NCBI GenBank assembly: GCA_963422655.1
Contig: OY730440.1
Coordinates: 2,041,442 to 2,105,441, forward strand
Length of the DNA stretch: 64,000 nt
Source of the DNA: Acidimicrobiales bacterium
GTDB lineage: Bacteria > Actinomycetota > Acidimicrobiia > Acidimicrobiales > Aldehydirespiratoraceae
Direction of reading: 5' to 3'
Translations under genes and position numbers: made by a program
Part shown: in pieces, positions 6,222 through 63,972 of the stretch
Position numbering within the stretch: the first letter of the stretch is position 1
How the letters are laid out: the number at the start of each line of letters is the position of its first letter
The notes under the pieces: generated by a model
Told to the model about the DNA's origin: nothing
Database searches by the model: none
Seen by the model: the letters and a program-made list of their open reading frames with translations, nothing else

Positions 6222-6731
6222 ATGAAGCTCATGTCCCTGACCGTCAATGGCACCGAGCGGAGCCTCGAAGTGGAGCCGCGTACGCTGCTGGTGCATGCGC
6301 TGCGCGATCAGCTCGGGCTCACCGGCACCAACATCGGCTGCGATTCCAGCAGTTGCGGTGCCTGCACGATCCTCGTCGACGGTCGATCCGCCAAATCCTG
6401 CACCATGCTGGCCGTTCAGGCCGACGGGGCCGACGTCACCACCATCGAGGGGCTGGCCGGCGCCGACGGCACGCTGCACCCGGTCCAACAGGCCTTTCAC
6501 GAGTGCCATGCTCTGCAGTGCGGCTACTGCACGCCGGGCATGGTGATGGCCGCCGTCTCGCTCATCGACGAGTATCCCGACCTCGACGAAGTCGGGGTGC
6601 GCTCCGGCTTGGAGGGCAACCTCTGCCGCTGCACCGGCTACCAGAACATCGTCGATGCCGTCCTGCAAGCAGTCGGCAACTCGGCGGAGGCCCGCCGAGC
6701 CGCCACCGTCACGGCTGGGAACCGATCATGA
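6222..6731 (+). CDS. (2Fe-2S)-binding small subunit of a xanthine-dehydrogenase/CO-dehydrogenase-family molybdenum hydroxylase (CoxS-like)
   Basis: Two [2Fe-2S] motifs: [16 protein letters not shown], and CGYCTPGM with CRCTGY. ATG 6222 follows gaggggg. Confidence 0.9.
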
Positions 6732-35515: not shown

Positions 35516-35573
35516 CCCTGCGCCCGGCCGTTCGTCGGGCCGTCGAGCTTCCCTGGTTTGGACTGGGTAATAG

Positions 35574-35666
35574 CGGAGGTGGACGGGAATCGAACCCGCC
35601 GGACGGGGATCACCCGCCCCACCCGCTTTGAAGGCGGGGGAGCCCACCAGGCGCTCGGACACCTCC
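35574..35666 (-). tRNA. selC: tRNA with anticodon UCA and a long variable arm (selenocysteine tRNA candidate)
   Basis: Reverse complement: GGAGGTGTCCGAGCGCCTGGTGGGCTCCCCCGCCTTCAAAGCGGGTGGGGCGGGTGATCCCCGTCCGGCGGGTTCGATTCCCGTCCACCTCCG. 7-bp acceptor stem. Anticodon stem CCCGC/GCGGG with loop CTTCAAA. 6-bp variable-arm stem. GGTTCGATTCC T-loop, where the T stem can be drawn with 6 bp (7+6 = 13). Confidence 0.75.
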
Positions 35667-49790: not shown

Positions 49791-50750
49791 TCAGGCGCTG
49801 GAGAGGTCGCTCCGAGCAGGAGCAGCGCCGGTCGGGCCCTCTTGGGGGCATACGTAAGGCTCGTAGGAGCCGTCGATTCTGGCCGTCAGGAAGTCTCCGG
49901 CCGTGACCGGCTCGTAACGGCAGGGCCGGGCGGCGGTGACGCAACTCGGGATGGGATCGACCACGGTGCCCGGATCGGGGTTGACGAAGAATGGGACCGA
50001 GAACCGGTCTCGATCTGGTGCTCCCACCACCCGATGCGGGGTTGATCGGTACCGGTCGTTGGTCCAGCGGGCCAACATGTCGCCCAAGTTCACTACCAGG
50101 CTCCCGAGCGGTGCCGAGACCGGCGTCCAGTCGCCGCCCAGGGGCTTTACCTCGAGGCCCGGTACCCCGTCGGTGGCCAGCAGGGTGATGGCGCCGTAGT
50201 CGGTGTGGGGGGTGGACAGAACCGGCAACGATCCGTCGTCGTCCATCGGCGTGACTGGGTAGTGCACGAGCCGGAGCCGGCATTGGGGGTCGGTCATGCG
50301 GGCCGCGAAGAAGCTCGGATCGGCGTCGAGGGCTATGGCCAGAGCCCGCAGGATCGTTGCCGCGGTGGCGAGGGCAGCCCGCTGATAGGCGCGCACCGCT
50401 GGAGCGAACCCGGAGATGTCCGGCCAGGTGATCTCGTCGGCCAGCCCGATGTCGATGTGTTCGAAAATGTTGCTGGCTCGCTCGGGATCCAGTGTTTGCC
50501 CGGTAAGCGGCACGAACCCGTACCGGTTGACCCGGGGTACTTGTTCTTTGCGGTCCTGGGGTAGGGCGAAGAAGGTCCGTGACGCTTCGAACACGGCATC
50601 GAGCCGGTCACCGAGACCGTGTCCGGTGACGCCGAAGAAGCCCGTATCCGTGCAGGCGTCATCGATGCCTTCGATGATCATCGAGGCTTCGGGCCCGGTC
50701 GGTTCGTTGCGCAGTGCGGTGATATCGATGATGGGCAGGGTGATAGTCAC
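49791..50750 (-). CDS. 2-oxoglutarate/Fe(II)-dependent oxygenase (isopenicillin-N-synthase-like)
   Basis: PHTDYGAITLLATD, GLEV, VVNLGDMLARWTNDRYRSTPHRV. Confidence 0.8.
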   Translation of the reverse strand: MTITLPIIDITALRNEPTGPEASMIIEGIDDACTDTGFFGVTGHGLGDRLDAVFEASRTFFALPQDRKEQVPRVNRYGFVPLTGQTLDPERASNIFEHIDIGLADEITWPDISGFAPAVRAYQRAALATAATILRALAIALDADPSFFAARMTDPQCRLRLVHYPVTPMDDDGSLPVLSTPHTDYGAITLLATDGVPGLEVKPLGGDWTPVSAPLGSLVVNLGDMLARWTNDRYRSTPHRVVGAPDRDRFSVPFFVNPDPGTVVDPIPSCVTAARPCRYEPVTAGDFLTARIDGSYEPYVCPQEGPTGAAPARSDLSSA

Positions 50751-52039
50751 GCGCCGGCCTCCGCAATTGCATCGTCATACCCGGTACCGATCCGAGACCG
50801 ACACCTCTCGACCGGTTCTATCCCCACGGTGGTGTGCTGGTTGGTGGAGGCGACGAGTCGGCCTTGGTGGTAGGTGCGGCGGGACATTGCGGCGTCGGCG
50901 ACGGCGGCTCGGACCGATGTGGCGTCGATGGCGGTGAGCTCGGCGGGGTCGCCGGGTTCGAAGTTGACCGGGGCCAGGCCCATGGCTCGGCGGGCGTTGT
51001 TGGAGACCATGTCGTAGGCGGTTTCGGGGGTTTGGTGGGCGGCCATGACCAGCAGGGCGGCGGTTTCCAGCGGGTCGCTGCGACCTACCGGATTGTAGGG
51101 GTCTTGCACGTTGTCGGCTCCGGCTGCTACCAGGGTGCCGGCGTGGCGCAGGGTGTCGATGGCGGTGAGGCCGCGGGGGGTGGCGGTGGGGTGGTGGCGT
51201 CCTTGGAGGTAGAGGTTGGTTTGGGGCAAGGTGATCACTGCGATCTCGGCTTCGGCTACTTCGGCTGCCACGGCGGCTTGGACGTCGGGTGGTTGCATGC
51301 CCAAGCTCACGCAGTGGCTGGCCGCGACCGGGTGAGCGAAACCGGTTTCGTGTACTTGGCGGGCCAGGCTGCGTAACGTCAACACGCCGGGGTCGAGCAT
51401 CTCATCGACATGAAGATCGATGCCCAAACCAGCGTCGGCGGCCGCATCCAAGGCATAGGCGATGAGGCCGGGGCCGTCAGGATCGAGATGAGGGCAGCCG
51501 CCCACCAAATCCACCCCCGCCTCCAGAGCCGCGGCCAGGGCCCGGCGGTTGGCAATGCTGTCAGAGCCGGTCAAGGGAAAGCCGCTCAAAGCCACGATCT
51601 GGACATCCATCAGCCCGGCGAAACGGTCGGCGGCCTCCCGCACTGCGGCTACCGCCACGGTTGTCGGATCTCCCAGGGCGTTGACGTGAGATCTCACCGC
51701 CGTCACCCCGTGCACCAGCAGCAGTTCCAAGGCCTGGCTTGCTCGGTTCACGATGTTCTCGTAGGTGAAGAGACCGGCCGATGCCGCTGCTGACCAGGCT
51801 TCGATGGCGCCGAGCAGGTCGCCGGTGGGGTTACCGACATCGGTGGCGGTGAGTGCCTTGTCGAGATGGGAGTGAGGCTCGGCCAAGGCGGGGAGAAGTA
51901 ACCAGCCCGCCAAGTCGTCGATCTCGGCCCCTTCGGGGGCGGGCGACCCGGCGGCGGCCACTGCGGTGATCAGGCCGTCGTCGGTGTGGACATCAACGGC
52001 TCGGCCGTCGGCCAGCCGGGCGTTGCGTAGCACTCTCAC
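50747..52039 (-). CDS. Amidohydrolase, cytosine-deaminase-like (paralog 1)
   Basis: LPALAEPHSHLDKA (HxH metal site). 430 aa. The stop overlaps the start of the oxygenase gene. Confidence 0.8.
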   Translation of the reverse strand: MRVLRNARLADGRAVDVHTDDGLITAVAAAGSPAPEGAEIDDLAGWLLLPALAEPHSHLDKALTATDVGNPTGDLLGAIEAWSAAASAGLFTYENIVNRASQALELLLVHGVTAVRSHVNALGDPTTVAVAAVREAADRFAGLMDVQIVALSGFPLTGSDSIANRRALAAALEAGVDLVGGCPHLDPDGPGLIAYALDAAADAGLGIDLHVDEMLDPGVLTLRSLARQVHETGFAHPVAASHCVSLGMQPPDVQAAVAAEVAEAEIAVITLPQTNLYLQGRHHPTATPRGLTAIDTLRHAGTLVAAGADNVQDPYNPVGRSDPLETAALLVMAAHQTPETAYDMVSNNARRAMGLAPVNFEPGDPAELTAIDATSVRAAVADAAMSRRTYHQGRLVASTNQHTTVGIEPVERCRSRIGTGYDDAIAEAGA

Positions 52040-52058: not shown

Positions 52059-53288
52059 TCAACCGAGTATCCGGGTGTGCTGGTTGGTGGAGGCGACGAG
52101 TCGGCCTTGGTGGTAGGTGCGGCGGGACATTGCGGCGTCGGCGACGGCGGCTCGGACCGATGTGGCGTCGATGGCGGTGAGCTCGGCGGGGTCGCCGGGT
52201 TCGAAGTTGACCGGGGCCAGGCCCATGGCTCGGCGGGCGTTGTTGGAGACCATGTCGTAGGCGGTTTCGGGGGTTTGGTGGGCGGCCATGACCAGCAGGG
52301 CGGCGGTTTCCAGCGGGTCGCTGCGACCTACCGGATTGTAGGGGTCTTGCACGTTGTCGGCTCCGGCTGCTACCAGGGTGCCGGCGTGGCGCAGGGTGTC
52401 GATGGCGGTGAGGCCGCGGGGGGTGGCGGTGGGGTGGTGGCGTCCTTGGAGGTAGAGGTTGGTTTGGGGCAAGGTGATCACTGCGATCTCGGCTTCGGCT
52501 ACTTCGGCTGCCACGGCGGCTTGGACGTCGGGTGGTTGCATGCCCAAGCTCACGCAGTGGCTGGCCGCGACCGGGTGAGCGAAACCGGTTTCGTGTACTT
52601 GGCGGGCCAGGCTGCGTAACGTCAACACGCCGGGGTCGAGCATCTCATCGACATGAAGATCGATGCCCAAACCAGCGTCGGCGGCCGCATCCAAGGCGAC
52701 GCCGAGGGCGGCGGCGGGATCCGGGTCGAGTTGGGGGCAGCCGCCCACCAAGTCCACCCCCGCCTCCAGAGCCGCGGCCAGAACGGACCGGCTCTCGGCC
52801 CCCTTCGGGCCGCTGATCGATCCCCCGGTCAGGGCCACGATCTGGAGATCGACCAGACCGGCAAACCGGCGGCGCACCTCATGCAAGACCCGTATACCGA
52901 TGACACCGGTCTCGGGCACCGTGTTCACATGGGAGCGGATAGCCGTGGCTCCGTGTCCGACCAGTAACCTCACTGCCGCCGACGCTCTCTCGGCCAGGTT
53001 TTCCTCGCTGAATCGGCCCGCGGTCACCGCTGCTGACCAGGCTTCGATGGCGCCGAGCAGGTCGCCGGTGGGGTTACCGACATCGGTGGCGGTGAGGGCT
53101 TTGTCGAGATGGGCGTGAGGCTCGGCCAAGGCGGGGAGAAGCAACCAGCCCGCTAAGTCGTCGATCTCGGCCCCTTCGGGGGCCGGCGACCCGGCGGCGG
53201 CCACTGCGGTGATCAGGCCGTCGTCGATGTGAACATCAACGGCTCGGCCGTCGGCTAGCCGGGCGTTACCCAGAACTCGCATCGTCAC
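52059..53288 (-). CDS. Amidohydrolase, cytosine-deaminase-like (paralog 2)
   Basis: LPALAEPHAHLDKA. The 3' 624 nt are identical to paralog 1. Confidence 0.8.
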   Translation of the reverse strand: MTMRVLGNARLADGRAVDVHIDDGLITAVAAAGSPAPEGAEIDDLAGWLLLPALAEPHAHLDKALTATDVGNPTGDLLGAIEAWSAAVTAGRFSEENLAERASAAVRLLVGHGATAIRSHVNTVPETGVIGIRVLHEVRRRFAGLVDLQIVALTGGSISGPKGAESRSVLAAALEAGVDLVGGCPQLDPDPAAALGVALDAAADAGLGIDLHVDEMLDPGVLTLRSLARQVHETGFAHPVAASHCVSLGMQPPDVQAAVAAEVAEAEIAVITLPQTNLYLQGRHHPTATPRGLTAIDTLRHAGTLVAAGADNVQDPYNPVGRSDPLETAALLVMAAHQTPETAYDMVSNNARRAMGLAPVNFEPGDPAELTAIDATSVRAAVADAAMSRRTYHQGRLVASTNQHTRILG

Positions 53289-53362: not shown

Positions 53363-53459
53363 CAAGGGCTGGTTCTCGATGCTTGATTCAGATGGCGACC
53401 GGTTCGGGTAAGACTTTCACAGCCACCAACGTCTCGTACCGGCTCCTTCGCCACGTCGG
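53363..53459 (+). pseudogene. 97-nt relic of a type I restriction hsdR gene (helicase motif I region)
   Basis: Encodes LIQMATGSGKTFTATNVSYRLLRHVGARRILF. It matches 60386-60482 of the intact hsdR with 7 mismatches in 97 nt (my count). No homology on either side. Confidence 0.75.
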
Positions 53460-53901
53460 TGCACGCAGGATTCTGTTTCGTCTATTACGGTCTTTTGAGT
53501 TGCTTCTCCCCCGGGCAACCCGCACCCCGCTCGGAGTGCGGGACCAGGTTGTGGCGGGCCATAGCAAAGATTGTCGCGGCGTGCCAGCAAAACAGATCCG
53601 CAGGGTCCCGCGGGTTGAAGAGCAAGTCCCGGGCCAGCGCCGCTCGGGCATCGCCGGTGAGGCGATCGACTGTCCAACCAGCGACCGGAACCAGTTGCCT
53701 TCCACCGAGGACACCGCCTCCACCGGCCCGGCGACTGCTTCGCCGCCGGACGCGATTACTGGTTGCGCGCGACATCCGGGCGGGGCGTGCAACCAGGCCG
53801 TGCGGCGCCAGTTGTCCGCAGCTTCGCCAAGTCGAGGGTGGTGGATCAGACCGTGTGTTTCCATCAACGGACCGTGTGCTCCCATCAAATCGTTCGGGTG
53901 G

Positions 53902-53929
53902 TTGATTCTCGCCGGCAGGTTGCTATATT
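53902..53929 (+). promoter_or_regulatory. Candidate sigma-70-type promoter of the island operon
   Basis: TTGATT-N16-TATATT, about 60 nt upstream of ATG 53990, at the point where the sequence becomes AT-rich. Confidence 0.35.
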
Positions 53930-53989: not shown

Positions 53990-54256
53990 ATGATGCAGGT
54001 CAGAGAAGCGGTGGAATCAGCAGCAGCAGCGGTTCTGTGCGTCAGTGTGGAGGACCTTCGACTCAACGATGCAAAGGGTGGGTTACGGTTCGATTCGCCC
54101 CAGGCCGAAGCAATCGTGGCCCGCGTCGAGGGGTTGCTCGGCACGGGTCCCCTGGCTGAGGTCAAAGATCTGCAAACCAGTGAGCCAGCGACGCTTGAGA
54201 CGTTGACGGAACTGCTCGAAACCAAGCGCACTGGTAGCGAGGCGATGACGACATGA
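53990..54256 (+). CDS. Acyl/peptidyl carrier protein-like small protein
   Basis: 88 aa. The layout parallels ACP: VREAVESAAAAVLCVSVEDLRLNDAKGGLRFDSPQAEAIVARVEGLLG. The DS motif at the start of helix 2 would be the phosphopantetheine serine. Confidence 0.55.
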   Translation: MMQVREAVESAAAAVLCVSVEDLRLNDAKGGLRFDSPQAEAIVARVEGLLGTGPLAEVKDLQTSEPATLETLTELLETKRTGSEAMTT

Positions 54257-55038
54257 TGTCGATCGTTGCGGATAGCGCCCTAGAGGCGTGGGCGGCCGCC
54301 GTTTGGGAGATCTCCCGAAAATCTGACCGAGAGGTTGTTCATTCGATTGTTTCGTTCCCCTGCGATACGACTCTTGGCCCCGAACACGAGCAGGTGAGCC
54401 AGATGTTGACGGATGCTGGTGCGTGGGATGTCAAACAGGTTGCGGACACGATCTTTCCGCAGTCTCTGTATCGCCCCGAGGCCGAGGAACCAGCTAAGGC
54501 ACTTTTCGAGAACTGGAACTATGCGCGGCAAGTCAACAGACGCCGCAAAGGCCAGTCCATCACCTACTTCGACAGGCTGACTCACTACCCGAATAGCACT
54601 GGCGATTTCAACCAGCTCCAATGCCAGTTGGAGAAGCTTCGTTCAGAGCTTGCGGCAAGAGGCCCTTATCGAGCGATCTACGAGTTGGGGCTGACCGGTG
54701 AGGCTGAACTGCGTCTCATGATCCCAGGAGTGGACCGACCTCGACGCAGTTTCCCGTGTCTGAGCCACGTGAGCCTGACATTACGTAAGAAAACACTTCA
54801 TCTGATGGCCCAGTACCGATATCAGTACATGATACGCAAGGCGCTGGGTAACTATCTTGGCCTCAGTCGACTGCTCGCGTTCTTTGTGAATGAGCTCGGA
54901 TTGACCGCGGGCAGGGTCAGCGTCACTGCTGCGTATGCACGAATCGACGCGAAAAAGTTGGGTGGCATCAAGAGATGGAGAACGTTCGCTGAAAGTCTGA
55001 AGACTATGGAGCCAACAGCCTTGGAGCAACAGAAATGA
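54253..55038 (+). CDS. Thymidylate synthase / pyrimidine hydroxymethylase-fold protein (divergent)
   Basis: [66 protein letters not shown] parallels ThyA [80 protein letters not shown] parallels DRTGTGTLSIFG. 4-nt overlaps with both neighbours. Confidence 0.45.
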   Translation: [261 protein letters not shown]

Positions 55039-55484
55039 ACAGACCTGAGCATCTTGAGCGATGGCTGGGGTCTGCATTGCAAGCCCTTACCACCGATTTC
55101 GATGACGTGATCCCTGGAATCGATGTGGTCAGTGTCCCGGACTTCGAGCATCTGATCAGAATTGGAGGTCAGCAATTCCTGACGCGCCAGTTCACCAGTG
55201 CCGAGCTGTCCGAATGTGGTAGCAACGGTGAGCGCCTAGCCGCTCGTTTCGCAGCGAAGGAAGCCACGGTGAAGGTGCTGAGGACCGGATTTCGCAGAGG
55301 TATTGCAGCTCGCCATATCGAAATCAAAACGAACAAATCCGGAATGCCGCACGTGATGCTGCACGGACCCGCGGCTGAAAGAGCCGAACAGATGTCGCTG
55401 AGGTTAGTAAATGTGACACTGACTCACGATGCAGATCTGGCTGCAGCAGCGGCGATTGGACGGCGCGAAAATGAGACCGTGTGA
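55035..55484 (+). CDS. AcpS-type 4'-phosphopantetheinyl transferase
   Basis: GIDVVSVPDFEHL, FTSAELSEC, ERLAARFAAKEATVKVL, IEIKTNKSGMPHV, VTLTHDADLAAAAAI. All AcpS motifs appear in the expected order. Confidence 0.8.
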   Translation: MNRPEHLERWLGSALQALTTDFDDVIPGIDVVSVPDFEHLIRIGGQQFLTRQFTSAELSECGSNGERLAARFAAKEATVKVLRTGFRRGIAARHIEIKTNKSGMPHVMLHGPAAERAEQMSLRLVNVTLTHDADLAAAAAIGRRENETV

Positions 55485-55505: not shown

Positions 55506-55880
55506 ATGACCGAGAAGACCATGCCAGAAGTCGGCACAGAACAAGCCGCGATTGGTGAGCGGTTAAAGGAAGCGCGCACCTATCTCGGATTGACCCAGGA
55601 ACTAGTGGCCGAGGAGTTGTCGATTCCCCGGCCAGCGGTATCCCAGATCGAGCGTGGAGGAAGACGCGTGTCAGGCATAGAACTCAAGAAGCTGGCAACT
55701 CTCTATGGTCGGCCCGTGGGTTGGTTCTTCGGTGATATAGAGGGGACGGTTGGGGATACCGGAGAGCAGACCGACGCGCTGTTCCGCGCTATGAACGATC
55801 TTGATGAATCTGATGTGGAAGAGGTTGTGCGGTTCGCCGAGTTCCTGCGTAGTCGCGCCGAGACGTCACCATGGCAGTGA
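55506..55880 (+). CDS. XRE-family helix-turn-helix transcriptional regulator
   Basis: IGERLKEARTYLGLTQELVAEELSIPRPAVSQIERGGRRVSGIELKKLATLYG. aaggag SD. Confidence 0.85.
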   Translation: MTEKTMPEVGTEQAAIGERLKEARTYLGLTQELVAEELSIPRPAVSQIERGGRRVSGIELKKLATLYGRPVGWFFGDIEGTVGDTGEQTDALFRAMNDLDESDVEEVVRFAEFLRSRAETSPWQ

Positions 55881-57007
55881 GCCAGAATCGGCGCCACCTT
55901 GCCGAGGCTAATCGTCAAGGTCGTCTCGAGGCTGAGCGTCTCCGCAACCGGTTGGGGCTCAACACCCAGACCTGGATCGATGTTTTTGAAATCATCGAAT
56001 CGCAGCCCAATCTGGAATTACTCTTTCGCCCTCTCAAAAAACTGTACGGCTTTTACTTGCAACGCCAAGGGTCGTCGGGGATTGTGATCAATGCTGATCA
56101 CCCATCAGCCTTGAGGAGGTTTACCGCGGCGCACGAACTCGGTCACCACGTTCTGAGCCATGGAGAATCAGTCGATCTGAGCCATGGAGAATCAGTCGAT
56201 CTGAGCCATGGAGAATCAGTCGATGAGAATGGACACATAAATACCCCTCTCGGGATCGATGACGAGGGGGTCGACGGCATAGTCAGTGCTCGTTCAATCC
56301 AGAACGCAGGAAACCTCGTCAAAGAAGCCGCTGCCCAGGGGTTCGCTGGCTCGTTCTTGATGCCGTTGGCGCCGGTGAACCGGTATCTACGCGATCACAC
56401 CGGATCCACACGAGGAGGCATACTCCCCGCCGATCAGGTCTATAAGTTGGCTGTGGAGTTCGGGGCGAGCTTTGGCGCGACATGCACACAACTGGCTGCG
56501 CTGAATAAGATCGACTGGGAATACCGCGCCCAGTTACTTCAAGCCGGTGCTCTCAAAGTTGCAACTGATATCGGTTACGGAACTTCGCCCCGCCACCGCC
56601 GAGCTGATGTGGTGGTGGGTGATCACTTGCACGGCGCTCAAGTGATGGAACATGACGCAGAATTGGTCGTAGAGATTGTCGAAACACCAACGACGGGGTG
56701 TGTTTGGACGCTCGACGAAATTCCGAGGCAGCTTGAAGTCATCGCCGACAGCGTAGTCGCGGATGAACATGACGGGGAGCGGCTGGGTGGGAGCCAGACC
56801 CGCCATATACGTTTTGGCGTTGTCAAGCCTGGCGATGCAGTGGTGCGATTCGGATTGAGGGCGGCGTGGCAACCGGAATCCGAACCTCTGCAATCGCGCG
56901 TCGTGGAGGTCTCGGTACGTGAGCCTGTGTTCAATTCTGGCTGTTCATTGAGTCGTAGGACGCTTCGCCGGAGAGTGGCGATGGTCCATGCGATGTCGGT
57001 GATGTGA
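55871..57007 (+). CDS. ImmA/IrrE-family zinc metallopeptidase fused to a C-terminal chagasin-like (I42) cysteine-peptidase inhibitor domain
   Basis: HExxH site FTAAHELGHHVL. The C-terminal 110 aa parallel chagasin: ETPTTGCVW (NPTTGFAW), RLGGSQTRHIRFGVVKPGDAVVRFGLRAAW (LLGAGGTEHFHVTVKAAGTHAVNLTYMRPW). 10-nt overlap with the XRE gene. Confidence 0.7.
   Translation: MAVSQNRRHLAEANRQGRLEAERLRNRLGLNTQTWIDVFEIIESQPNLELLFRPLKKLYGFYLQRQGSSGIVINADHPSALRRFTAAHELGHHVLSHGESVDLSHGESVDLSHGESVDENGHINTPLGIDDEGVDGIVSARSIQNAGNLVKEAAAQGFAGSFLMPLAPVNRYLRDHTGSTRGGILPADQVYKLAVEFGASFGATCTQLAALNKIDWEYRAQLLQAGALKVATDIGYGTSPRHRRADVVVGDHLHGAQVMEHDAELVVEIVETPTTGCVWTLDEIPRQLEVIADSVVADEHDGERLGGSQTRHIRFGVVKPGDAVVRFGLRAAWQPESEPLQSRVVEVSVREPVFNSGCSLSRRTLRRRVAMVHAMSVM
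56153..56224 (+). repeat. Perfect 3 x 24-nt in-frame tandem repeat (ctgagccatggagaatcagtcgat) encoding LSHGESVD x3
   Basis: Read directly. It starts 2 codons after the HELGH motif. Confidence 0.95.
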
Positions 57008-57681
57008 CCGAACGAGTGTTGAATTTAGCACGGTCACTGCCGCCGGTACGTTCGCAGGGCCAGCGTGGTACATGCGTGGCGTTTGTTCTCACGTGTGGAC
57101 ATGAACGGGCGCTTTACCAGGGACCGAACGGCGAGCCTCTCAGCGAACAAGCACTGCATTGGGCCACGAAACAAATCGACCAACAGCCAGGTGACGCAAC
57201 AACTCTCTCTTGCGGAGCCCAGGCCTTGGCTTCGTCTGGACAACCACTCTCGTCGGTTTGGCCCTACGAGCCCAGCATTGATCCGGGACCTCCTCCTCCA
57301 GACTGTTTCGACACCGTCTGGTCCGCGGAAGCTGAGCCTGTCGGCGAGACTGGAGTGGCAGCACTTCGCGATATGTTGAGCAACTCACTTATCGTCTGCA
57401 CCGGGATCCCACTTTGGCCGGAGTTCACGGCAGCGACAGGTACTGCTTCAGCGATCATCCCCGTCACTCCTTTCGCTCAGACACAGAAGCCATCTCATGC
57501 GATAGCGCTTGTGGGTCACGATCCGATGCGAGGGGCCGTACTGGTTCGCAATTCGTGGGGTGAGAGTTGGGGCACTAACGGCTATTGTTGGGTAGAGGAC
57601 CAGCTCGTTGCCTGCTGCACATTGATGTGGGCGGTGATACAGGTCGTTCAAAGCCATGAGAAGCGATATGGATCTGAGTGA
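57004..57681 (+). CDS. Papain-family (C1) cysteine peptidase, no signal peptide
   Basis: VRSQGQRGTCVAFV (Gln/Cys), PSHAIALVGHD (His), VLVRNSWGESWGTNGYCWV (Asn/Trp). The GTG start overlaps the upstream stop (GTGA). Confidence 0.8.
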   Translation: MTERVLNLARSLPPVRSQGQRGTCVAFVLTCGHERALYQGPNGEPLSEQALHWATKQIDQQPGDATTLSCGAQALASSGQPLSSVWPYEPSIDPGPPPPDCFDTVWSAEAEPVGETGVAALRDMLSNSLIVCTGIPLWPEFTAATGTASAIIPVTPFAQTQKPSHAIALVGHDPMRGAVLVRNSWGESWGTNGYCWVEDQLVACCTLMWAVIQVVQSHEKRYGSE

Positions 57682-58618
57682 ATATCAACTGAAAGCGCAA
57701 GCCACCGACCAGCGGCTCCCCATGCCTGATGGTAATGAAGAGCCTCTTGATGACGACCACATTGTAGTTCCGTTGCTCGGACTGGTGGGTGAGGTGGGTG
57801 CGCTGCATACCGAGTACAAGAAGCTGCTGCGTGACGGAAGTGCCTACAGCGGCTTCGAACGCCACCTCGACGAAGAACTCGGTGATATCTTGTGGTATGT
57901 CGCTAACCTGGCATCAAAGTTCGGCCGCGATCTAAATGCCATCGCTAAAGAGAATCTTGCCAAAGTTCGCGATCGATTCCCCTCTGAAGATGCAGTTGAT
58001 AACTTTCAGTTTCCTGATCAAGACTTTCCACGCGAGCAGCAACTTCCACGTGAATTTGAGGTGTTCTTTCACACCGAAAGGCCATCAATTGATGGGCAGC
58101 CTCCGAAGGTTCAGTGTTACTGGAACGATGCCAAGTTCGGGAACGAGCTCGACGATAACGCCGTTGATGATAACGGGTACCGTTATCATGACGCATTCCA
58201 TCTCGCCTACGTTGTCTATCTCGGATGGTCACCAGTACTGCGGAAGTGGTTCGCCAGAAAACGCGACGAAACAACTCACCGTATTAGAGATGGTGGCCGG
58301 GCCAAGGTATACGAAGAAGCCATCGCAGTGCTTGTCTACAGCCACGCGTCCGAAGTGGGGTGGTTTGCTAAACCAAACCAGGAAGTTGACTTCTCCGTCC
58401 TGAAACTCATAAAGCAACTGACAGATGGTCTCGAGGAACTCAGGAATGTGACGTTGCACCGTTGGGCGGAGGCGATCAAAGCCGGATTTGCAGTCTGGAA
58501 TCAGCTCCGTGCGAATACCGGTGGTGTAGTGGTTGGAGATGCCACAGTGCCGAAGCTTGAGTATCGGCCATTGCCGTCTGACTGGCATCCGCCCTTGAAT
58601 GCCCATTTCGAGCCGTAG
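57656..58618 (+). CDS. MazG-like all-alpha NTP pyrophosphohydrolase with a 200-aa C-terminal extension of unknown function
   Basis: LLGLVGEVGALHTEYKKLLRDG ... DEELGDILWYVANLASKFGRDLNAIAKENLAKVRDRF (EExxE/D metal motifs). Overlaps the peptidase gene. An alternative start is ATG 57668. Confidence 0.65.
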   Translation: MRSDMDLSEYQLKAQATDQRLPMPDGNEEPLDDDHIVVPLLGLVGEVGALHTEYKKLLRDGSAYSGFERHLDEELGDILWYVANLASKFGRDLNAIAKENLAKVRDRFPSEDAVDNFQFPDQDFPREQQLPREFEVFFHTERPSIDGQPPKVQCYWNDAKFGNELDDNAVDDNGYRYHDAFHLAYVVYLGWSPVLRKWFARKRDETTHRIRDGGRAKVYEEAIAVLVYSHASEVGWFAKPNQEVDFSVLKLIKQLTDGLEELRNVTLHRWAEAIKAGFAVWNQLRANTGGVVVGDATVPKLEYRPLPSDWHPPLNAHFEP

Positions 58619-59690
58619 AGGGCAGAGGATCGACGGTCCACAACCTGAGGGTATCCGACTGACACACCGTGGGTTCGTTCGCAGTCATTGGTAGATTCCA
58701 TTTGGGTGGGTAGCCCAACACGAGAGGCTCAGACTTTGGTACGAAGGATTGCTTGATACGGCGTGGACCGCCAGTGTCAATTTCGGGATGTGCAACTCGC
58801 GCGTATTTGTCCACCTCACAGAACAGGTTCTGGATATCGATCAGGTGCAGTTGCCGGCCCCACAGGTCCTTGAAGTTTTTATCAGCTAGATACGGGGATG
58901 CCTCGTCTGCCATCGCAGCGATGAGATCGTGGGGATCAAGGCTACCGGTATCAGTGAAGCATTTCTGGATACCGCGTAGCGCACCTGGGCCAGCAACGAC
59001 GAAGTCCATTTCGTCGAAATCGAAGTGGGGGCTGTAGTTGAGATCGATAGCATATTGAAACGCCAGAAACGGACCGAAGGATGGAATGCAGGTCAGTTGC
59101 TCGTAGAGATCTTTGAGGGTCCTGGCCTGCGTTAGTTGCCGTAGAGTGCCTTCTCGTACGAGATGTGCGAGAAGCGCAAGATGGTTCCGGTGCTTTCGGT
59201 TCTCGCCCATGGTCGGCGAAGGCATGATGTATGCGGCTGAGTAAATACGATTGCCAGCCTTGAGGCGCCGGTCGAGGGCTCTGCTGTACCATCCTGGATC
59301 AAAAGTTGCGAGAGTCGGCTGGCCGACCGTTTCAACCAGGTAGTTCCAAGTTTCGATACGGTTGAATATCTTGAACAACAGAACTCGAAAGACCGTGTCG
59401 TCAGCGTCACGCTCATCGTCGTAGATGACGTGTTGCAGGAGGTATTGACTCACTCGATCAGAAGCACGGTACGCGTTCGTAAACCGATAGTTCGCAAGTA
59501 CGGGGTCGTTGGTCCATGGCCTTGGAAGGCCAGACACACGCCGGTTGAACATTGCTTGGCGTTCGGCAGCCAGATACCAGTAGCTCCAGAACACCTCGGT
59601 TACGGCCACCTGACGGTCCCGCAGACGGATCCGTGGAGGACGGTCCGATTGGCTCAGACGAGGCATGGCACCGGGATGATCTTGGCACAA
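58476..59690 (-). CDS. Protein resembling the phage thymidine-hypermodification family (5-hmdU DNA kinase helical / aGPT-pyrophosphorylase-like, often annotated as nucleotide kinase domain-containing protein)
   Basis: N-terminal pattern FWSYWYLAAERQAMFNRRVSGLPRPWTNDPVLANYRFTNAYRASDRVSQYLL, recalled from that family. Not verified by search. The 3' 143 nt overlap the convergent MazG-like gene. Confidence 0.45.
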   Translation of the reverse strand: MCQDHPGAMPRLSQSDRPPRIRLRDRQVAVTEVFWSYWYLAAERQAMFNRRVSGLPRPWTNDPVLANYRFTNAYRASDRVSQYLLQHVIYDDERDADDTVFRVLLFKIFNRIETWNYLVETVGQPTLATFDPGWYSRALDRRLKAGNRIYSAAYIMPSPTMGENRKHRNHLALLAHLVREGTLRQLTQARTLKDLYEQLTCIPSFGPFLAFQYAIDLNYSPHFDFDEMDFVVAGPGALRGIQKCFTDTGSLDPHDLIAAMADEASPYLADKNFKDLWGRQLHLIDIQNLFCEVDKYARVAHPEIDTGGPRRIKQSFVPKSEPLVLGYPPKWNLPMTANEPTVCQSDTLRLWTVDPLPSTARNGHSRADASQTAMADTQASALWHLQPLHHRYSHGADSRLQIRL

Positions 59691-59785
59691 GAACAGACGC
59701 GATGCAGAACCGGGCCACTAGTTCAGCCGTAAGCGCCGGTACGGGCCGCTGCCAGGAGCCGATCAGACCAACGAGTGCCAGACTA

Positions 59786-62665
59786 ATGGCCATGGCTGAT
59801 GAGCCTTCGGACTATCTCGCTCCCGAGCAGCATGCGCGCATGAAGATCGACGCCCAACTCAAGGCGTGCGGATGGGTGGTGCAGGACTACCGGCATGGCG
59901 CTGTGAGTGCCGCGCCCGGTGTCGCCGTGCGTGAGGTGCCCACTGGGGCTGGCCCCGCCGATTACGTGCTGTTCGTGGACGCCCAGGCGGTGGGGGTGAT
60001 CGAAGCCAAGAAGCGGGGCACGACGCTCACCGGCGTGGAACGCCAGACGCACAGATACCGGGCAGCCTTTCCCGATGAGCTGCCAGCTTTTTTCGTTGAG
60101 GGGGCTCTGCCCTTCGGCTACGAATCAACCGGCACCGAGACCCGGTTCACCTGCGGGCTCGATCCGGAGCCGACGTCACGGCGAGTGTTCACGTTTCATC
60201 GACCCAAAACGCTCGCCCGCTGGCACGATGATCACATCCGTCTAGGCGGCCACGCCACCTCCAGGACCAGCTTCCGGGCCGGGCTGGGTCTTCTGCCCGA
60301 TCTGGATCCGGCTGGGCTCTGGGCAGCCCAAGCCGAAGCCATCCGGAATCTCGAGCGGTCGTTGAAAGCGAACCGGGCCCGGGCTTTGATCCAAATGGCG
60401 ACCGGCTCGGGTAAGACTTTCACAGTCGCCAACATCTCGTACCGGCTCCTTCGCCACGCCGGTGCACGCAGGATTCTGTTTCTGGTGGACCGGGCCAACC
60501 TGGCCACACAAACGATCCGTGAGCTCGAGGGTTTCGCCACCCCCGACGACGGCCGTAAGTTCACCGAGCTCTACAACGCCCGCCAGCTCACCTCCTCGGG
60601 GCTCGACATGGTTGACGAGGCAGCCACCAAAGTGCATGTGGCGACCATTCAGCGGATCTACTCGATCTTGCGGGGCGAGGACCTTAGCGACGATCTCGAC
60701 GAACGGTCGGCTTTCGACATGGCCCCCGAACGCCCCGTGGAAGTGCTCTACAACCCGGCTGTACCCATCGAGAGCTACGACGTGATCATCATCGACGAAT
60801 GCCACCGGTCGATCTATGGGGTATGGCGCCAGGTGCTGGAGTATTTTGACGCCTTCCTCATCGGGCTTACGGCCACGCCGGGCAAGCAGACATTCGGTTT
60901 CTTCGACCAGAACCTGGTGATGGAGTACGGCCACGAACAGGCCGTTGCCGACCGGGTGAACGTCGACTTCGATGTGTTTCGCATTCGTACCGAGATCTCC
61001 GAGTCCGGCAGCACCGTTGATGCCGGGTTGGTCACCGAGTTCCGTGACCGGGAGACCCGCAAGCAGCGCTTCGAACGTATCGACACCGACTTGGACTACG
61101 AGGCCTCCGACCTCGACCGTAAGGTGGTGGCTCCCGATCAGATCCGCACAATCGTTAGCGCTTTGCGCGACTCGCTGCCGAAAATGTTTCCGGATCGCAT
61201 CGTGGGAGACAACGGGCGGCTCGAACACATACCCAAGACGTTGATATACGCCAAAGACGACAGCCATGCCGACGACATCGTGCAGATCGTCCGTGAAGAG
61301 TTCGGCCTGTCGAGTTTGGGTGCGGTGAAGATCACCTACAAGACGTTCGAGTCCGGTCACAAACCCGAGGAGCTGCTTCAACAGTTCCGAACCGGCTACG
61401 AGACTCGGGTCGCGGTCACGGTTGACATGATCGCCACCGGCACCGATGTGCGGCCCATTGAGTGTGTCGTGTTCATGCGGATGGTGCGCAGCCGCACCTT
61501 CTTTGAGCAGATGAAGGGTCGTGGAGTGCGAGTGATGAGCTCCGAAGACCTGCGCGGTGTCACTCCTGACGCCACCGCCAAAGACCATTTCGTGATCGTT
61601 GATGCGGTCGGCGTTACCGAAACCATGCTGGCCGACACAGTTCCGCTGGAGCGCTGCCATAGCGTCGGGTTCGACCGGCTTCTCAACCAGATCGGCCTCG
61701 GCAGTACCGACGAAGATGTCGTCTCATCGGTGGCGTCCCGGCTGGCCCGACTCGACAAGCGCATCACCGGACCGGACCGAGCCGAGCTCGAAGAAGTGGC
61801 AGGCATCAGTCTCGGTGAGCTGTCTCACCAACTCGTCGATGCCCTTGACCCTGATCGGCATCACGCCGAGGCTATAAAGGTCTGTGGCACTGATATGCCT
61901 ACTGGCGCCGAAGTCGCGGCGGCCCGTAAACGACTAGTGAAAGCAGCGCTGGCGCCCATCGCGGGTAACTCTGCGTGTCGTGAGAAGCTGGTCGAGATTC
62001 GTCGTAGCTACGAACAGGTCATCGACGCCGCCTCCAAGGACCGGGTCATATCAGGCCGATTCTCCAGGGACGCCACCGACCGGGCCCGCGGCATCGTCGA
62101 TTCCTTCCGCCAGTACATAGAAGACAACAAGGACGAGATCACCGCTCTTCAGGTTCTCTACAGCCAGCCCTATAGCGGTGGGCTCAGCTTCGCTGACATC
62201 CGGGAGTTGGCGAACTCGATCAAACGGTCACCTCGCAACTGGACCACCGAGGACCTCTGGGAGGCTTACGAGACTCTTGACGCCAGCAAGGTTCGGGGGT
62301 CGGGTCATCGAGTCAACACCGATCTCGTCAGCCTGGTTCGTTACGCGTTGGGCAGCGCTGATGAGCTTGTCTCTTACCCTGATCTCGTAGACGAGCGCTT
62401 TGACGCGTGGCTGTTGCAGCAGACCCAATCCCCCCCCCCCCCCCCCCCCCCCGGAAGCGAAAGACTCGGGGGAGGGCTTTCCAGTGAACAGATTGACTAT
62501 CTCCGCCTAGTCAAGGATCACATCGCCGCAAGTCTCGGGATCGAGGCTCGCGATTTACAGAACCTGCCGTTCAGTCAGCACGGTGGACTAGGCCGAGCCC
62601 GCCAGCTCTTCGGCCGCGGTCTTGAACAATTACTAGACGAGCTCACTCAGGCGCTGGCCGCATGA
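59786..62665 (+). CDS. hsdR: Type I restriction enzyme R subunit
   Basis: N-terminal PD-(D/E)xK nuclease ADYVLF...VIEAKK. Helicase motifs IQMATGSGKT, IIIDECHRS, LTATP, TVDMIATGTDV. C-terminal EcoEI_R_C-like domain after the poly-Pro. Start taken at ATG 59786; the ORF is open from 59552. Confidence 0.9.
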   Translation: MAMADEPSDYLAPEQHARMKIDAQLKACGWVVQDYRHGAVSAAPGVAVREVPTGAGPADYVLFVDAQAVGVIEAKKRGTTLTGVERQTHRYRAAFPDELPAFFVEGALPFGYESTGTETRFTCGLDPEPTSRRVFTFHRPKTLARWHDDHIRLGGHATSRTSFRAGLGLLPDLDPAGLWAAQAEAIRNLERSLKANRARALIQMATGSGKTFTVANISYRLLRHAGARRILFLVDRANLATQTIRELEGFATPDDGRKFTELYNARQLTSSGLDMVDEAATKVHVATIQRIYSILRGEDLSDDLDERSAFDMAPERPVEVLYNPAVPIESYDVIIIDECHRSIYGVWRQVLEYFDAFLIGLTATPGKQTFGFFDQNLVMEYGHEQAVADRVNVDFDVFRIRTEISESGSTVDAGLVTEFRDRETRKQRFERIDTDLDYEASDLDRKVVAPDQIRTIVSALRDSLPKMFPDRIVGDNGRLEHIPKTLIYAKDDSHADDIVQIVREEFGLSSLGAVKITYKTFESGHKPEELLQQFRTGYETRVAVTVDMIATGTDVRPIECVVFMRMVRSRTFFEQMKGRGVRVMSSEDLRGVTPDATAKDHFVIVDAVGVTETMLADTVPLERCHSVGFDRLLNQIGLGSTDEDVVSSVASRLARLDKRITGPDRAELEEVAGISLGELSHQLVDALDPDRHHAEAIKVCGTDMPTGAEVAAARKRLVKAALAPIAGNSACREKLVEIRRSYEQVIDAASKDRVISGRFSRDATDRARGIVDSFRQYIEDNKDEITALQVLYSQPYSGGLSFADIRELANSIKRSPRNWTTEDLWEAYETLDASKVRGSGHRVNTDLVSLVRYALGSADELVSYPDLVDERFDAWLLQQTQSPPPPPPPGSERLGGGLSSEQIDYLRLVKDHIAASLGIEARDLQNLPFSQHGGLGRARQLFGRGLEQLLDELTQALAA
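62430..62452 (+). repeat. 23-nt poly-C homopolymer inside hsdR (encodes S-P7)
   Basis: Counted directly: c at 62430 plus cccccccccc cccccccccc cc. Confidence 0.95.
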
Positions 62666-63972
62666 GTGAAGATCTTCCACCAGGCTGGGCGTGGGCCGAA
62701 TTGGGTTGCATAGCCGACACGCAGCTTGGAAAGACATTGAATCGTTCCAAACAGACGGGTGAAGCGACTACCCCTTACCTACGGAACCTCAACATCAGAT
62801 GGGGGAGCTTTGATCTCAATGCTGTCAACAGGATGGATATCTTTCCTGAGGAATCTGAACAATTTACAGTTCAAAATGGTGATCTGCTTCTGACTGAGGG
62901 TGGTGAACCAGGCCGGTGTGCAGTGTGGCGGCTCGAGGAGAGATTCGGGTTTCAGAATGCCCTACACCGAATTCGTCCCGCTGGTCGTATTCGCCCTGAA
63001 TTTCTCCAATGTCAGTTTGAATGGCTGACCAAGACAGGACAATTAGCTCACCTCTTTTCAGGTGTCACGATCAAGCATTTTTCTCAGTCAAAACTGCGAT
63101 CAGTCAAGATCCGACTTCCGCCGCTTGCGGAGCAGGGGCGGATTGTTCCTGCTATCGAAGAGCACTTCTCACGGCTCGACGCCGCAGAAACGGCTGCTCA
63201 GACCGCTCTCACCAAGCTGGACATGCTCCGGCGAGCGGTGCTAGCCGCCGCCTTCTCCGGCCGCCACACCGACGACTGGAAGTGGGCCGAATTGGGTGAG
63301 ATTTGCACGGAGATTAAGGGACAGATCTCCCCCAAATCCGGATCCATCTACGATCTATATAGCGTCCCAGCATTCCCAACCGGGCTTCCCGAACGAATTG
63401 ATGGTGACGAGATCAAGAGTGGAAAGCGTGAAATCCAGCCGGGCAATCTTCTGATCTGTAAGATTAACCCTCGCATCAACCGTGTTTGGATAGTCGGTGA
63501 CTCCGAAGGACTACCTCAGATTGCTTCAACGGAGTATCTAGTTATCCGCCCGCATGAACCCAATGTAGGTGCCTTCATTCGATGGTATCTATCGTCTCCA
63601 TCGTTCAGGAAATGGATCGTACTATCGGTGGAGGGTGTCACTGGCTCTCACACACGAGCCAAATCTAGGCTCATCCTTAAGCAGCCAATTCCCCTTCCGC
63701 CGCTTGCGGAGCAACAGCGGATTGTTGCTGCTATCGAAGAGCACTTTTCCCGAATAGATGCCGCCGAGTCAGCCTTGCAGAAGCTGCTCGAAAAGGTAGC
63801 GGATTTGCGTCGGTCGATACTCGCTGCTGCGTTCTCGGGCCAGCTCGTTCCCCAAGATCCCGACGACGAGCCAGCGTCGGTCCTACTCGAACGAATCGTT
63901 GCTGAGCGGCCGAAGCGTCGCACCCGGCGAGCCGCACCCGCCGCCTCATTCGGCGCAAGGAAGCAGTCATGA
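62662..63972 (+). CDS. hsdS: Type I restriction-modification specificity subunit
   Basis: Two target-recognition domains separated by, and followed by, conserved helices LPPLAEQGRIVPAIEEHFSRLDAAE... and LPPLAEQQRIVAAIEEHFSRIDAAE.... ATGA overlap with hsdR. Confidence 0.9.
   Translation: MSEDLPPGWAWAELGCIADTQLGKTLNRSKQTGEATTPYLRNLNIRWGSFDLNAVNRMDIFPEESEQFTVQNGDLLLTEGGEPGRCAVWRLEERFGFQNALHRIRPAGRIRPEFLQCQFEWLTKTGQLAHLFSGVTIKHFSQSKLRSVKIRLPPLAEQGRIVPAIEEHFSRLDAAETAAQTALTKLDMLRRAVLAAAFSGRHTDDWKWAELGEICTEIKGQISPKSGSIYDLYSVPAFPTGLPERIDGDEIKSGKREIQPGNLLICKINPRINRVWIVGDSEGLPQIASTEYLVIRPHEPNVGAFIRWYLSSPSFRKWIVLSVEGVTGSHTRAKSRLILKQPIPLPPLAEQQRIVAAIEEHFSRIDAAESALQKLLEKVADLRRSILAAAFSGQLVPQDPDDEPASVLLERIVAERPKRRTRRAAPAASFGARKQS

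Follow-up and report, generated by a model that had tools for sequence, protein, structure and literature searches.

The locus and its gene content

In this study, we have examined a 64,000-nucleotide (nt) stretch of an Acidimicrobiales genome (assembly GCA_963422655.1, contig OY730440.1, positions 2,041,442 to 2,105,441 of the forward strand), hereafter the window, in which a gene for a MazG-like protein with a C-terminal MazG_C domain (MazG-MazG_C) converges on a gene for a helical protein of the Pfam family PF18723 (HEL). Compared across related loci, these two genes appear to lie at the core of a widespread bacterial cassette of eight genes that is conserved and horizontally mobile and here occupies a low-GC defence island. 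The window itself holds an intact member of a large and diversified cassette family, whose members combine an enzyme of the thymidylate-synthase (TS) fold, HEL, a nucleotide-processing partner and a switch made of an XRE-family repressor and an M78 protease, mostly in defence islands.

Seven of the eight genes form an operon on the plus strand. It opens with a putative, divergent carrier protein of 88 amino acids (aa) that resembles acyl and peptidyl carrier proteins (ACP and PCP; 53990..54256) and has its presumed phosphopantetheine site at Ser36, followed by a 261-aa protein with a divergent TS fold (TS-like; 54253..55038; Cys169 in a GFPCL motif) and a 149-aa AcpS-type 4'-phosphopantetheinyl transferase (55035..55484; PF01648, TIGR00556). 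Next come a 124-aa, CapH-like helix-turn-helix (HTH) repressor of the XRE family (55506..55880; PF01381, E=3.4e-13; PADLOC capH, E=5.2e-10), a 378-aa M78 metalloprotease of the ImmA/IrrE, CapP-like type with a C-terminal chagasin-type (I42) domain (55871..57007; PF06114, PF09394), a 225-aa papain-like (C1) cysteine protease (57004..57681; PF00112, E=1.5e-8) and, as the last gene of the operon, the 320-aa MazG-MazG_C protein (57656..58618; PF03819, PF18722). The 404-aa HEL protein (HMUDK_hel, or alpha-glutamyl-putrescinyl-thymine pyrophosphorylase (aGPT-Pplase) clade 1; PF18723) is encoded on the minus strand at 58476..59690, and the two last open reading frames (ORFs) overlap tail to tail by 143 nt (58476..58618), where the native MazG C-terminus meets a non-conserved HEL tail. 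An initial annotation of this DNA had placed both ORFs and their overlap at exactly these positions.

A putative control region on the plus strand (53849..53929) precedes the operon, as judged from consensus matches. A 21-nt direct repeat (53849-53888; 1.9 copies, GACCGTGTGYTYCCATCAAMG, found with Tandem Repeats Finder (TRF)) lies just upstream of a sigma-70-like match (53902-53929), the only one that the promoter scan placed in front of the operon. The region is ~98% identical in a related metagenome-assembled genome (MAG; locus L008), where the repeat is conserved, and the repeat could be a regulator-binding site. At the other end of the cassette, HEL is divergent from the restriction gene hsdR across an intergenic region (59691..59785) that measures 95 nt with a HEL TTG start at 59690 and the hsdR ATG at 59786, and 119 nt with the HEL ATG at 59666; the 95-nt divergent control region first described for this locus thus holds for the former pair of starts and not for the latter. 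No terminator, stable RNA structure or operator-like palindrome was found in the operon promoter region, the HEL/hsdR spacer or the overlap, and the spacer has no inverted repeat.

Neither HEL nor any other of the eight cassette proteins contains a Walker A motif, and none of the eight, nor hsdR, has a Pfam match to a clade-2 aGPT-Pplase or amino-acid:DNA transferase. NCBIfam models gave no match for MazG or HEL.

HEL and its relatives in hypermodifying phages

HEL is matched by PF18723 over residues 31-305 (profile positions 1-280 of 281; E=3.1e-102; 342.2 bits against a cut-off of 25). This family is named HMUDK_hel and was formerly called aGPT-Pplase clade 1, a name that persists in JGI and BFVD entries; in M6-like phages, the gene adjoining the kinase carries the same label in a phage genome note (PMC9476957). 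The initial annotation had linked the 404-aa protein to 5-hydroxymethyl-2'-deoxyuridine (5-hmdU) kinase and aGPT-Pplase chemistry and proposed a profile search against these Pfam families. That search scored far above threshold, and the link is borne out by the PF18723 match (E=3e-102), by phage homologues in thymidine-hypermodification cassettes and by a fold match to the kinase of phage SP10. The motifs it quoted from this protein, ERQAMFNRRVSG and PWTNDPVLANYRFTNAYRASDRVSQYL, are present, although the spacing given as W..ERQ is in reality W-YLAA-ERQ.

Alignments of 19 and later 61 homologues, 55-69% identical to HEL and mostly 332-367 aa long, delimit a conserved core at about residues 21-345 (nt 58656-59630), running to ...LGYPPKWNLPMTANEP. 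The last ~60 residues (about 345-404), which include the entire overlap, have no counterpart in any homologue. A broader alignment (A7), which takes in the HEL protein of the Escherichia coli defence system DS-4 and homologues from the Yuavirus phage BILI and the Brevibacterium phage LuckyBarnes, has among its invariant elements RFxNxxRxxD, GPG and C-E-x-D-K...R, which the bacterial, DS-4 and phage proteins all share. In full-length numbering, the CExDK motif has its Cys at C291 and its Glu at E292. These two residues recall the essential Cys and neighbouring Glu of the clade-2 enzymes (PMC8989533), a resemblance for which homology of the motifs is not demonstrable.

An AlphaFold2 (AF2) model built from the 61-sequence alignment is all-alpha, with a mean predicted local distance difference test score (pLDDT) of 94.5. 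Searched with Foldseek against BFVD, it matches the 637-aa 5-hmdU DNA kinase of SP10 (F8WQ30; template-modelling score over the query (TMq) 0.81, E=3e-15) and the 'helical domain' proteins of PhiW-14 (C9DG43; E=3e-9) and phiRSL1, as well as entries named 'Pplase1'; matches to amino-acid:DNA transferases are weaker (TM ~0.5, E~1e-3). Among experimental structures, the best match is a weak one to PUGT (8Z2N, PaMx11 gp46; probability 0.97, TM 0.38-0.45), followed by similarly weak matches to OGG/AlkA glycosylases (TM 0.3-0.45), and a sequence-profile search of the Protein Data Bank (PDB) with HEL returned nothing meaningful. In the model, HEL has the same all-alpha fold, similar to that of DNA glycosylases, as the helical domain that phages have in their 5-hmdU DNA kinases. 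HEL is thus the helical, glycosylase-like module that adjoins or is fused to the P-loop kinase in thymidine-hypermodifying phages. HEL is not itself a kinase, as it lacks a P-loop and PF18723 is the sole Pfam match on the 404-aa protein.

The family comprises more than 8000 protein clusters at 90% identity, and a HEL homologue is present in 503 phage records. In BILI, it directly follows a small P-loop kinase within a hypermodification cassette; in LuckyBarnes, the genes ahead of it encode a TS and two glycosyltransferases.

The MazG-MazG_C protein

The MazG domain (about residues 1-110) scores just above the Pfam cut-off (PF03819; 24.6 bits against 22, E=3e-5), and a family profile matches MazG-like structures in the PDB (2Q5Z/2Q73 and DCTPP1, E 8e-7 to 7e-6). 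The MazG core first proposed for this gene is therefore confirmed, and the motifs quoted for it, EVGALHTEYKK and EELGDILWYVANLA, begin at residues 46 and 73 of the 320-aa protein. The C-terminal region of 200 aa, which had been taken as unknown, is in fact the curated Pfam domain MazG_C (PF18722; residues 120-305, profile positions 6-188 of 190; E=6.8e-52; 176.2 bits against a cut-off of 29.7).

In the metal site, E46, E73, E74 and D77 are conserved, and the place of the second Glu in ExxE is taken by Ala49 in the window protein and by S, Q or G across the family. In MazG_C, the strongly conserved residues are D121, D167, Y175-R-x-H-D...H182, GWSP (190-193), D212-G-x-R, E221 and E261. A tblastn search of phage genomes with MazG_C gave no match, and its only PHROG match is a remote one (phrog_229). 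The domain is called a 'predicted nucleotide kinase' in the DefensePredictor study (PMC13092281).

The N-terminal ~110 residues resemble those of DCTPP1/RS21-C6, Bacillus YpjD-like proteins and E. coli MazG at the profile level (E 8e-7 to 1e-3), with EExxD intact. In contrast to these house-cleaning enzymes, the window protein lacks the second Glu of the first metal motif, is fused to a MazG_C domain of ~190 aa and is bound genomically to HEL rather than to housekeeping genes.

A conserved cassette among 88 HEL loci

We annotated 88 loci that encode HEL relatives with hidden Markov models made from the window proteins; many of the contigs are shorter than 5 kb, so all counts are lower bounds. 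MazG-MazG_C is the most frequent partner (58/88 loci), followed by the TS-like protein (47/88), the M78 protease (45/88), the XRE HTH repressor (43/88), the AcpS-type transferase (26/88) and the papain-like C1 protease (22/88). HEL and MazG-MazG_C are neighbours in nearly all of the 58 loci that have both.

Four architectures recur. In class A, to which the window belongs, the genes for the carrier, TS-like protein, AcpS, HTH, M78, C1 and MazG converge on HEL, in the same order in L014, L036, L048, L070 and L093. Class B loci have HTH, M78, TS-like, HEL and MazG co-directional and the transferase on the opposite strand. Class C loci begin with HEL and continue with the remainder, and L091 is a complete co-directional operon of eight genes. 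Class D consists of MazG and HEL alone. In L050, a single 674-aa ORF (5576-7600) apparently fuses HEL (residues 47-374) to MazG-MazG_C (residues 381-673). Loci without MazG have in its stead dCTP-deaminase-like (DCD) genes, a thymidylate kinase together with a classical TS, or radical SAM enzymes; the replacements are all nucleotide or hypermodification enzymes.

Because synteny is conserved and one gene fusion exists, a functional link between the TS-like, MazG and HEL genes is supported. The initial annotation had viewed these three as the triad with which phages replace thymine. Their association stands; the full phage pathway is absent, with no P-loop kinase and no clade-2 transferase, and the triad is really part of an eight-gene system that also contains the XRE/M78 pair, the C1 protease with its chagasin-type inhibitor, and the carrier with its transferase.

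The tight pairing of HEL and MazG-MazG_C fits an explanation in which HEL recognises 5-hydroxymethyl-pyrimidines in incoming phage DNA, and MazG-MazG_C either drains (deoxy)nucleoside triphosphates ((d)NTPs), as the dCTP-deaminase and dGTPase defences do, or adds (pyro)phosphate or a nucleotide to the flipped base and so marks the DNA for destruction, a scheme of sensing followed by depletion or modification-dependent restriction. MazG would then not serve to clean the nucleotide pool for a biosynthetic pathway. The adjacency and the L050 fusion mirror the fusion of a HEL domain to a P-loop kinase in the validated 5-hmdU DNA kinase of SP10 (PMC8989533), and the class D loci consist of this pair and nothing else. 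DCD-family enzymes take the place of MazG in some variants, and dCTP deaminases are said to have been described by Tal et al. in 2022 as nucleotide-depletion defence effectors. This explanation, however, gives no role to a TS-fold enzyme that has an intact catalytic Cys and belongs to the core of the family; the variants with thymidylate kinase, classical TS or radical SAM enzymes indicate synthesis over depletion, and the MazG metal site is incomplete. We therefore regard it as unlikely.

The overlap and the gene ends

The initial annotation suspected that at least one of the overlapping C-termini was mis-called. Homologue alignments offer a different picture, in which a native MazG end meets a non-conserved HEL tail and overlap is the family norm. 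Homologues of MazG-MazG_C, which fall into 363 clusters at E<=1e-30, can be aligned as far as residues ~295-309 of the 320-aa query. The MazG C-terminus is therefore native, and a mis-called MazG end was rejected, as the protein ends where its homologues end. The HEL tail after a conserved PPKW motif is 73 aa in the window against a family median of 31 aa, and this non-conserved read-through tail is the sole reason for the length of the window overlap.

Among convergent HEL/MazG pairs in other loci, 24 of 31 overlap, by 4-89 nt, with several lengths recurring, and in L093 the JGI gene calls give an overlap of 106 nt. A convergent arrangement peculiar to this genome was accordingly rejected, the arrangement being common. 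The distance from PPKW to the MazG stop codon is 79 nt in the window against a family median of 64 nt, and because of this the geometry is typical of the family, the window HEL simply meeting its stop codon later, in an antisense frame rich in GC. The tail-to-tail overlap is thus a normal feature of the gene family rather than an annotation error, and its 143 nt a likely by-product of tight convergent packing and a late stop codon in a GC-rich frame.

Could the locus nonetheless be decayed, with a mis-called C-terminus or a HEL gene that lost its stop codon, the pair being a non-functional remnant? The long HEL tail, unrelated to any homologue, and the heavily deleted copy of the cassette in a close relative would be expected under such decay. 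All eight ORFs, however, are full length with complete domain coverage; neither the HEL nor the MazG gene is frameshifted, the HEL core (residues 21-345) shares 60-68% identity with many homologues, and the TS-like protein, the C1 protease and AcpS keep their catalytic residues, as MazG does for the most part. MazG ends with its homologues, and variable C-terminal tails are normal in the HEL family. An artefact or a pseudogene is, in our judgement, scarcely credible.

A regulatory role of the overlap would be compatible with every functional model discussed here: convergent transcription could let a constitutively expressed HEL gene dampen leaky expression of MazG, the protease or the operon, or the reverse. 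The frequency of overlapping pairs and the short median distance between the HEL core and the MazG stop speak for it, as does the lack of any terminator-like hairpin in or near the overlap, across which convergent transcripts probably run. The length of the overlap, on the other hand, varies from 4 to 143 nt and the HEL tails are not conserved; antisense frames rich in GC contain few stop codons by nature, and the overlap RNA folds are not unusually stable (z = -1.2 and -1.9). About half of the MazG-containing loci are co-directional or fused, where antisense control is impossible, and because such architectures exist, antisense control cannot be essential to the system. We consider a regulatory function of the overlap doubtful.

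The TS-like protein and the putative carrier module

The TS-like protein matches TIGR03283 below the cut-off (E=4.5e-9). An hhalign comparison of its family alignment (A5) with real thymidylate synthases has a probability of 94.5% (E=8e-8) and places Cys169 opposite the catalytic Cys of TS and Asn200 opposite the TS Asn; C169, R108 and N200 are invariant in 28 homologues. The TS-fold gene of the initial annotation (54253-55038) is hence upheld at the profile level only, by hhalign and the catalytic Cys, with the TIGR03283 score falling short.

The transferase is well assigned (PF01648, E=2.3e-12; TIGR00556, 75 bits against a cut-off of 45) and retains the GxD and AAKEAxxK motifs. Its presumed substrate, the carrier, is more divergent: Ser36 is the sole invariant column among 14 homologues (alignment A3), and Pfam PP-binding matches two of the 14 aligned members (best E=0.063), the window protein not among them. 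A PDB profile search returned mainly carrier proteins at marginal E-values of 0.002-0.07 (6cxt with E=0.0018, 2lki, 4h2s, ACPs), with Ser36 aligned to the attachment serine of their DSL motif. A carrier homologue is present in all 15 of the 15 class A and C loci that have the AcpS transferase. In L003, L005 and L009, the carrier domain is fused to the HEL C-terminus, and the TS-like protein is fused to the transferase in the same loci. Class B loci yielded no carrier-protein ORF near the cassette; in these loci (L046, L047, L050, L051, L053, L054, L071, L075, L083 and L086), an AcpS-like gene stands alone on the opposite strand after MazG.

The XRE/M78 switch and the protease/inhibitor pair

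The M78 protein matches PF06114 (E=1.3e-11) and PADLOC capP (E=2.2e-15), with a HELGH motif at residues 88-92, and its C-terminus carries the chagasin-type I42 domain (PF09394, E=5.1e-11). As in the CapH/CapP systems, which regulate CBASS and other defence operons, an XRE HTH gene immediately precedes an ImmA/IrrE M78 gene with HExxH, and the capH and capP models match the pair. The window differs from CapH/CapP in the C-terminal inhibitor domain of its M78 protein and in the position of the regulator pair, which sits mid-operon and not at the operon head.

The C1 protease has Gln18, Cys24, His165 and Asn183-Ser-Trp intact, in motifs conserved in 21 homologues. Its gene co-varies with the I42 domain: both occur in 17 loci, neither in 20 and the inhibitor only in four (Fisher p=5e-8, for loci that are not independent), and in the two apparent protease-only cases the M78 gene without the domain is an additional, unrelated one at another position of the locus.

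Two features of the M78 gene and its surroundings deserve mention. In L003 (14243-14836), L005 (14259-14852) and L009 (13225-13818), the I42-bearing M78 gene is followed by a conserved 197-aa ORF instead of C1. This ORF was considered as a C1 protease and rejected; it has no Pfam match, its '...RDERLADIAVFGVKLA' segment looks MazG-like by eye, and a DCD gene follows it in L003. In the window, a perfect 24-nt tandem repeat in three copies (56152-56224; TRF) encodes SHGESVDL three times right after HELGH, and L008, where tblastn leaves a gap of 16 aa, apparently has one copy. The number of copies beside the catalytic site thus seems to vary.

The island and its restriction-modification neighbours

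The cassette island has ~56% GC in a genome of 65-70% GC, with hsdR and hsdS directly after it. These two genes (59786-63972) overlap by 4 nt, hsdS directly following hsdR, and no hsdM lies between them; hsdM must lie beyond the window end or be absent. The hsdS gene has the usual internal repeat of 74 nt (63115-63188 and 63694-63767).

The left edge of the island is marked by a 97-nt hsdR remnant (53383-53479) from the motif-I region, 93% identical to 60386-60482 of the intact hsdR 7 kb downstream. The cassette thus has a broken hsdR on one side and an intact one on the other, which points to its insertion into an older type I restriction-modification (R-M) locus or to a recombination event inside such a locus. 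The related locus L008, from an Acidimicrobiales MAG (OY730477.1), is 94-99% identical across the region and keeps ~690 nt of the same remnant (12494-13180), and its cassette has decayed (10001-12023). One deletion joins TS-like residues 1-94 to AcpS residues 101-149; a second joins M78 residues 1-178 to HEL residues 1-151, with loss of the C1 and MazG genes. The hsdR and hsdS genes of L008 are intact, and hsdR together with the adjoining part of HEL is 94-96% identical to the window.

Adjacency to hsdR, which the initial annotation had singled out, is not a conserved feature, since HEL has other neighbours in other loci. Annotated neighbourhoods elsewhere include TIR, SLOG (LD_cluster2), Nmad2, reverse transcriptase, type I R-M, SNF2/NOV_C and STAND ATPase genes. 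A TIR_2 and/or LD_cluster2 gene lies immediately upstream of HEL in L001 (9016-9870), L002 (7497-9565) and L092 (8105-9909), and the window cassette has no TIR or SLOG gene upstream of HEL.

Such surroundings bear on the possibility that the cassette hypermodifies pyrimidines of the host or island DNA, constitutively or conditionally, with the type I R-M system as part of the same epigenetic scheme, which corresponds to the thymine replacement proposed in the initial annotation. Each enzymatic part does have a counterpart in phage thymidine-hypermodification cassettes (PMC8989533, PMC9476957), HEL is divergent from hsdR across 95 nt, and R-M genes flank three other loci. Nevertheless, the locus encodes no P-loop 5-hmdU kinase, clade-2 transferase, dNMP kinase or dedicated polymerase, and its repressor/protease switch is typical of inducible defence operons. 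The cassette is also patchy in distribution, foreign in GC content and already deleted in a relative of 94-99% identity that retains intact R-M genes, a loss that would be hazardous if R-M depended on the cassette, and the adjacency to hsdR is not kept across loci. Self-modification is accordingly quite improbable.

Elsewhere in the window, just outside the island, tandem amidohydrolase-like paralogues of 430 and 409 aa (50747-52039 and 52059-53288) are 100% identical over a block of 300 nt and 91% identical over another of 284 nt, the copies being spaced by 1243 nt, which indicates that a tandem duplication or a gene conversion took place recently. Another patch of low GC (~55%; 15001-17000) and a tRNA-SeC gene (35573-35666, minus strand) are both unrelated to the cassette.

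Comparison with known systems

The closest experimentally supported relative is the E. coli system DS-4 ('NTTI'), composed of a TS, an adenylate-kinase-like dNMP kinase, an HMUDK_hel protein, TIR and Nmad2, whose anti-phage activity was validated experimentally (DeWeirdt, Mahoney, Laub, Science 2026, PMC13092281). Both systems are bacterial, occur in a defence setting and pair a TS-fold enzyme with an HMUDK_hel protein. The DS-4 HEL protein (WP_087900470.1) is 25% identical to that of the window and shares all family invariants, CExDK included, and TIR or SLOG genes, although not present in the window, also flank HEL in L001, L002 and L092. In contrast to DS-4, the window cassette (53.9-59.7 kb) lacks a dNMP kinase, TIR and Nmad2, so that it does not have the DS-4 gene set; its TS-fold protein is far more divergent than the PF00303-class TS of DS-4; and it adds MazG-MazG_C, the XRE/M78 switch, the papain/chagasin pair, and the carrier with its transferase.

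The same study predicts that systems of MazG, MazG-C, aGPT-Pplase and dUTPase are defensive, as yet unvalidated (DefensePredictor Fig. 6F, S12; PMC13092281), and names Burroughs et al. (NAR, 2015) as having made such a prediction by computation before. The likeness to the window lies in the combination of MazG, MazG_C, an aGPT-Pplase-type domain and an HTH in defence islands. The carrier, transferase, papain-like protease, chagasin fusion and convergent overlapping layout go unmentioned in the available part of that source, and no literature text describing the carrier, transferase, papain or chagasin parts was found in a comparison outside which Burroughs et al. 2015 and Iyer et al. 2013 lay.

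In phages, thymidine hypermodification proceeds from a dUMP hydroxymethylase to a P-loop 5-hmdU DNA kinase, then to an aGPT-Pplase2 or amino-acid:DNA transferase (PUGT, PDB 8Z2M) and finally to tailoring enzymes, as described for M6, ViI, PaMx11, SP10 and PhiW-14 (PMC5889632, PMC8989533, PMC11472151). HEL belongs to the family of the phage 'aGPT-Pplase1' gene beside the kinase (PMC9476957) and of the helical domain of the SP10 kinase; a TS-fold enzyme and a predicted NTP pyrophosphatase are common to both settings, and variant bacterial loci, like the phages, add radical SAM enzymes and kinases. The window differs from the phage pathways in having neither a P-loop kinase nor a clade-2 transferase, and MazG-MazG_C, which is fused to HEL in L050, occupies the position of the phage kinase. 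The cassette is, moreover, chromosomal, located in a defence island and under a repressor/protease switch, and its carrier and protease/inhibitor modules do not figure in the phage pathway papers considered here.

A proposed model of an inducible anti-phage cassette

Taken together, we lean towards the view that the cassette is an inducible anti-phage system that works through phage-type C5-pyrimidine chemistry. The chemistry is one that we infer, and our confidence in any single step is much lower than in the whole. The genomic context points to inducible defence and not to constitutive thymine replacement in the host genome.

In such a system, the XRE/M78 pair would keep the operon off until a signal of infection or DNA damage arrives, and the inhibitor domain of M78 would restrain the papain-like protease, so that the inhibitor/protease pair might serve as a second switch. 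MazG, or the DCD-like enzymes in variant loci, would turn pyrimidine (d)NTPs into monophosphates or drain triphosphates, and the TS-fold enzyme would modify C5. HEL, together with MazG_C, would then use its invariant Cys-Glu-x-Asp-Lys motif to act on a 5-substituted pyrimidine in DNA, whether this was made by the system or came in from outside, with the holo-carrier protein as a possible co-substrate. The net outcome would be that replicating phage DNA becomes unusable.

Several observations weigh against this view. The MazG domain lacks one of the four canonical acidic ligands, which makes its hydrolytic activity uncertain; MazG_C has no solved homologue in a profile search of the PDB, and the single-sequence AF2 model of MazG-MazG_C is unusable (pLDDT 36). 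The TS-like protein, too divergent for such searches, gave no PF00303 match and no TS match in the PDB profile search. PADLOC models match the HTH and M78 proteins only, with none matching MazG, HEL, the TS-like protein, C1, AcpS or the carrier, and the annotated neighbourhood of L093 has no obvious defence genes. The phage HEL homologue (M6 gp55 type) is dispensable for hypermodification in vitro (PMC8989533), and the effect of DS-4 is modest in one row of a supplementary assay (~0.9 log on lambda, with reduced plaque size flagged; PMC13092281).

A more specific form of the anti-phage view concerns the carrier. Clade-2 aGPT-Pplases and thymidylate synthases both generate an exocyclic C5-methylene on the pyrimidine. 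The phosphopantetheine thiol of the carrier might add to such an intermediate, made by HEL, the TS-like enzyme or both, and yield a protein-nucleotide or protein-DNA thioether; the protease and its inhibitor would control release or activation, and MazG-MazG_C would activate the hydroxymethyl group in the place of the phage kinase. There is a chemical precedent, in that a thiol (beta-mercaptoethanol) adds to the aGPT-Pplase2 intermediate (PMC8989533), and the fusions of HEL to the carrier and of TS to the transferase in L003, L005 and L009 also bear on the idea. No enzyme that would load the carrier is encoded in the locus. We think this scheme very unlikely; if true, it would put phosphopantetheinyl carriers to a novel use and would amount to a novel mechanism of immunity, namely covalent trapping of replicating phage DNA.

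Implications for HEL cassettes

Phage DNA-hypermodification enzymes are normally viewed as tools of counter-defence. Here, the same toolkit is built into a large and diversified family of bacterial cassettes under defence-type control. Systems of this kind are known from computational prediction, experimental support is confined to the distant DS-4, and the window presents an elaborate and intact architecture. Three partnerships are predicted from the analysis, namely between HEL and MazG-MazG_C, between the I42 inhibitor domain and the C1 protease, and between AcpS and the carrier. The cassette could reveal a new nucleotide- or DNA-modifying mechanism of immunity, and it could give a function to the 'aGPT-Pplase1' gene of hypermodifying phages.

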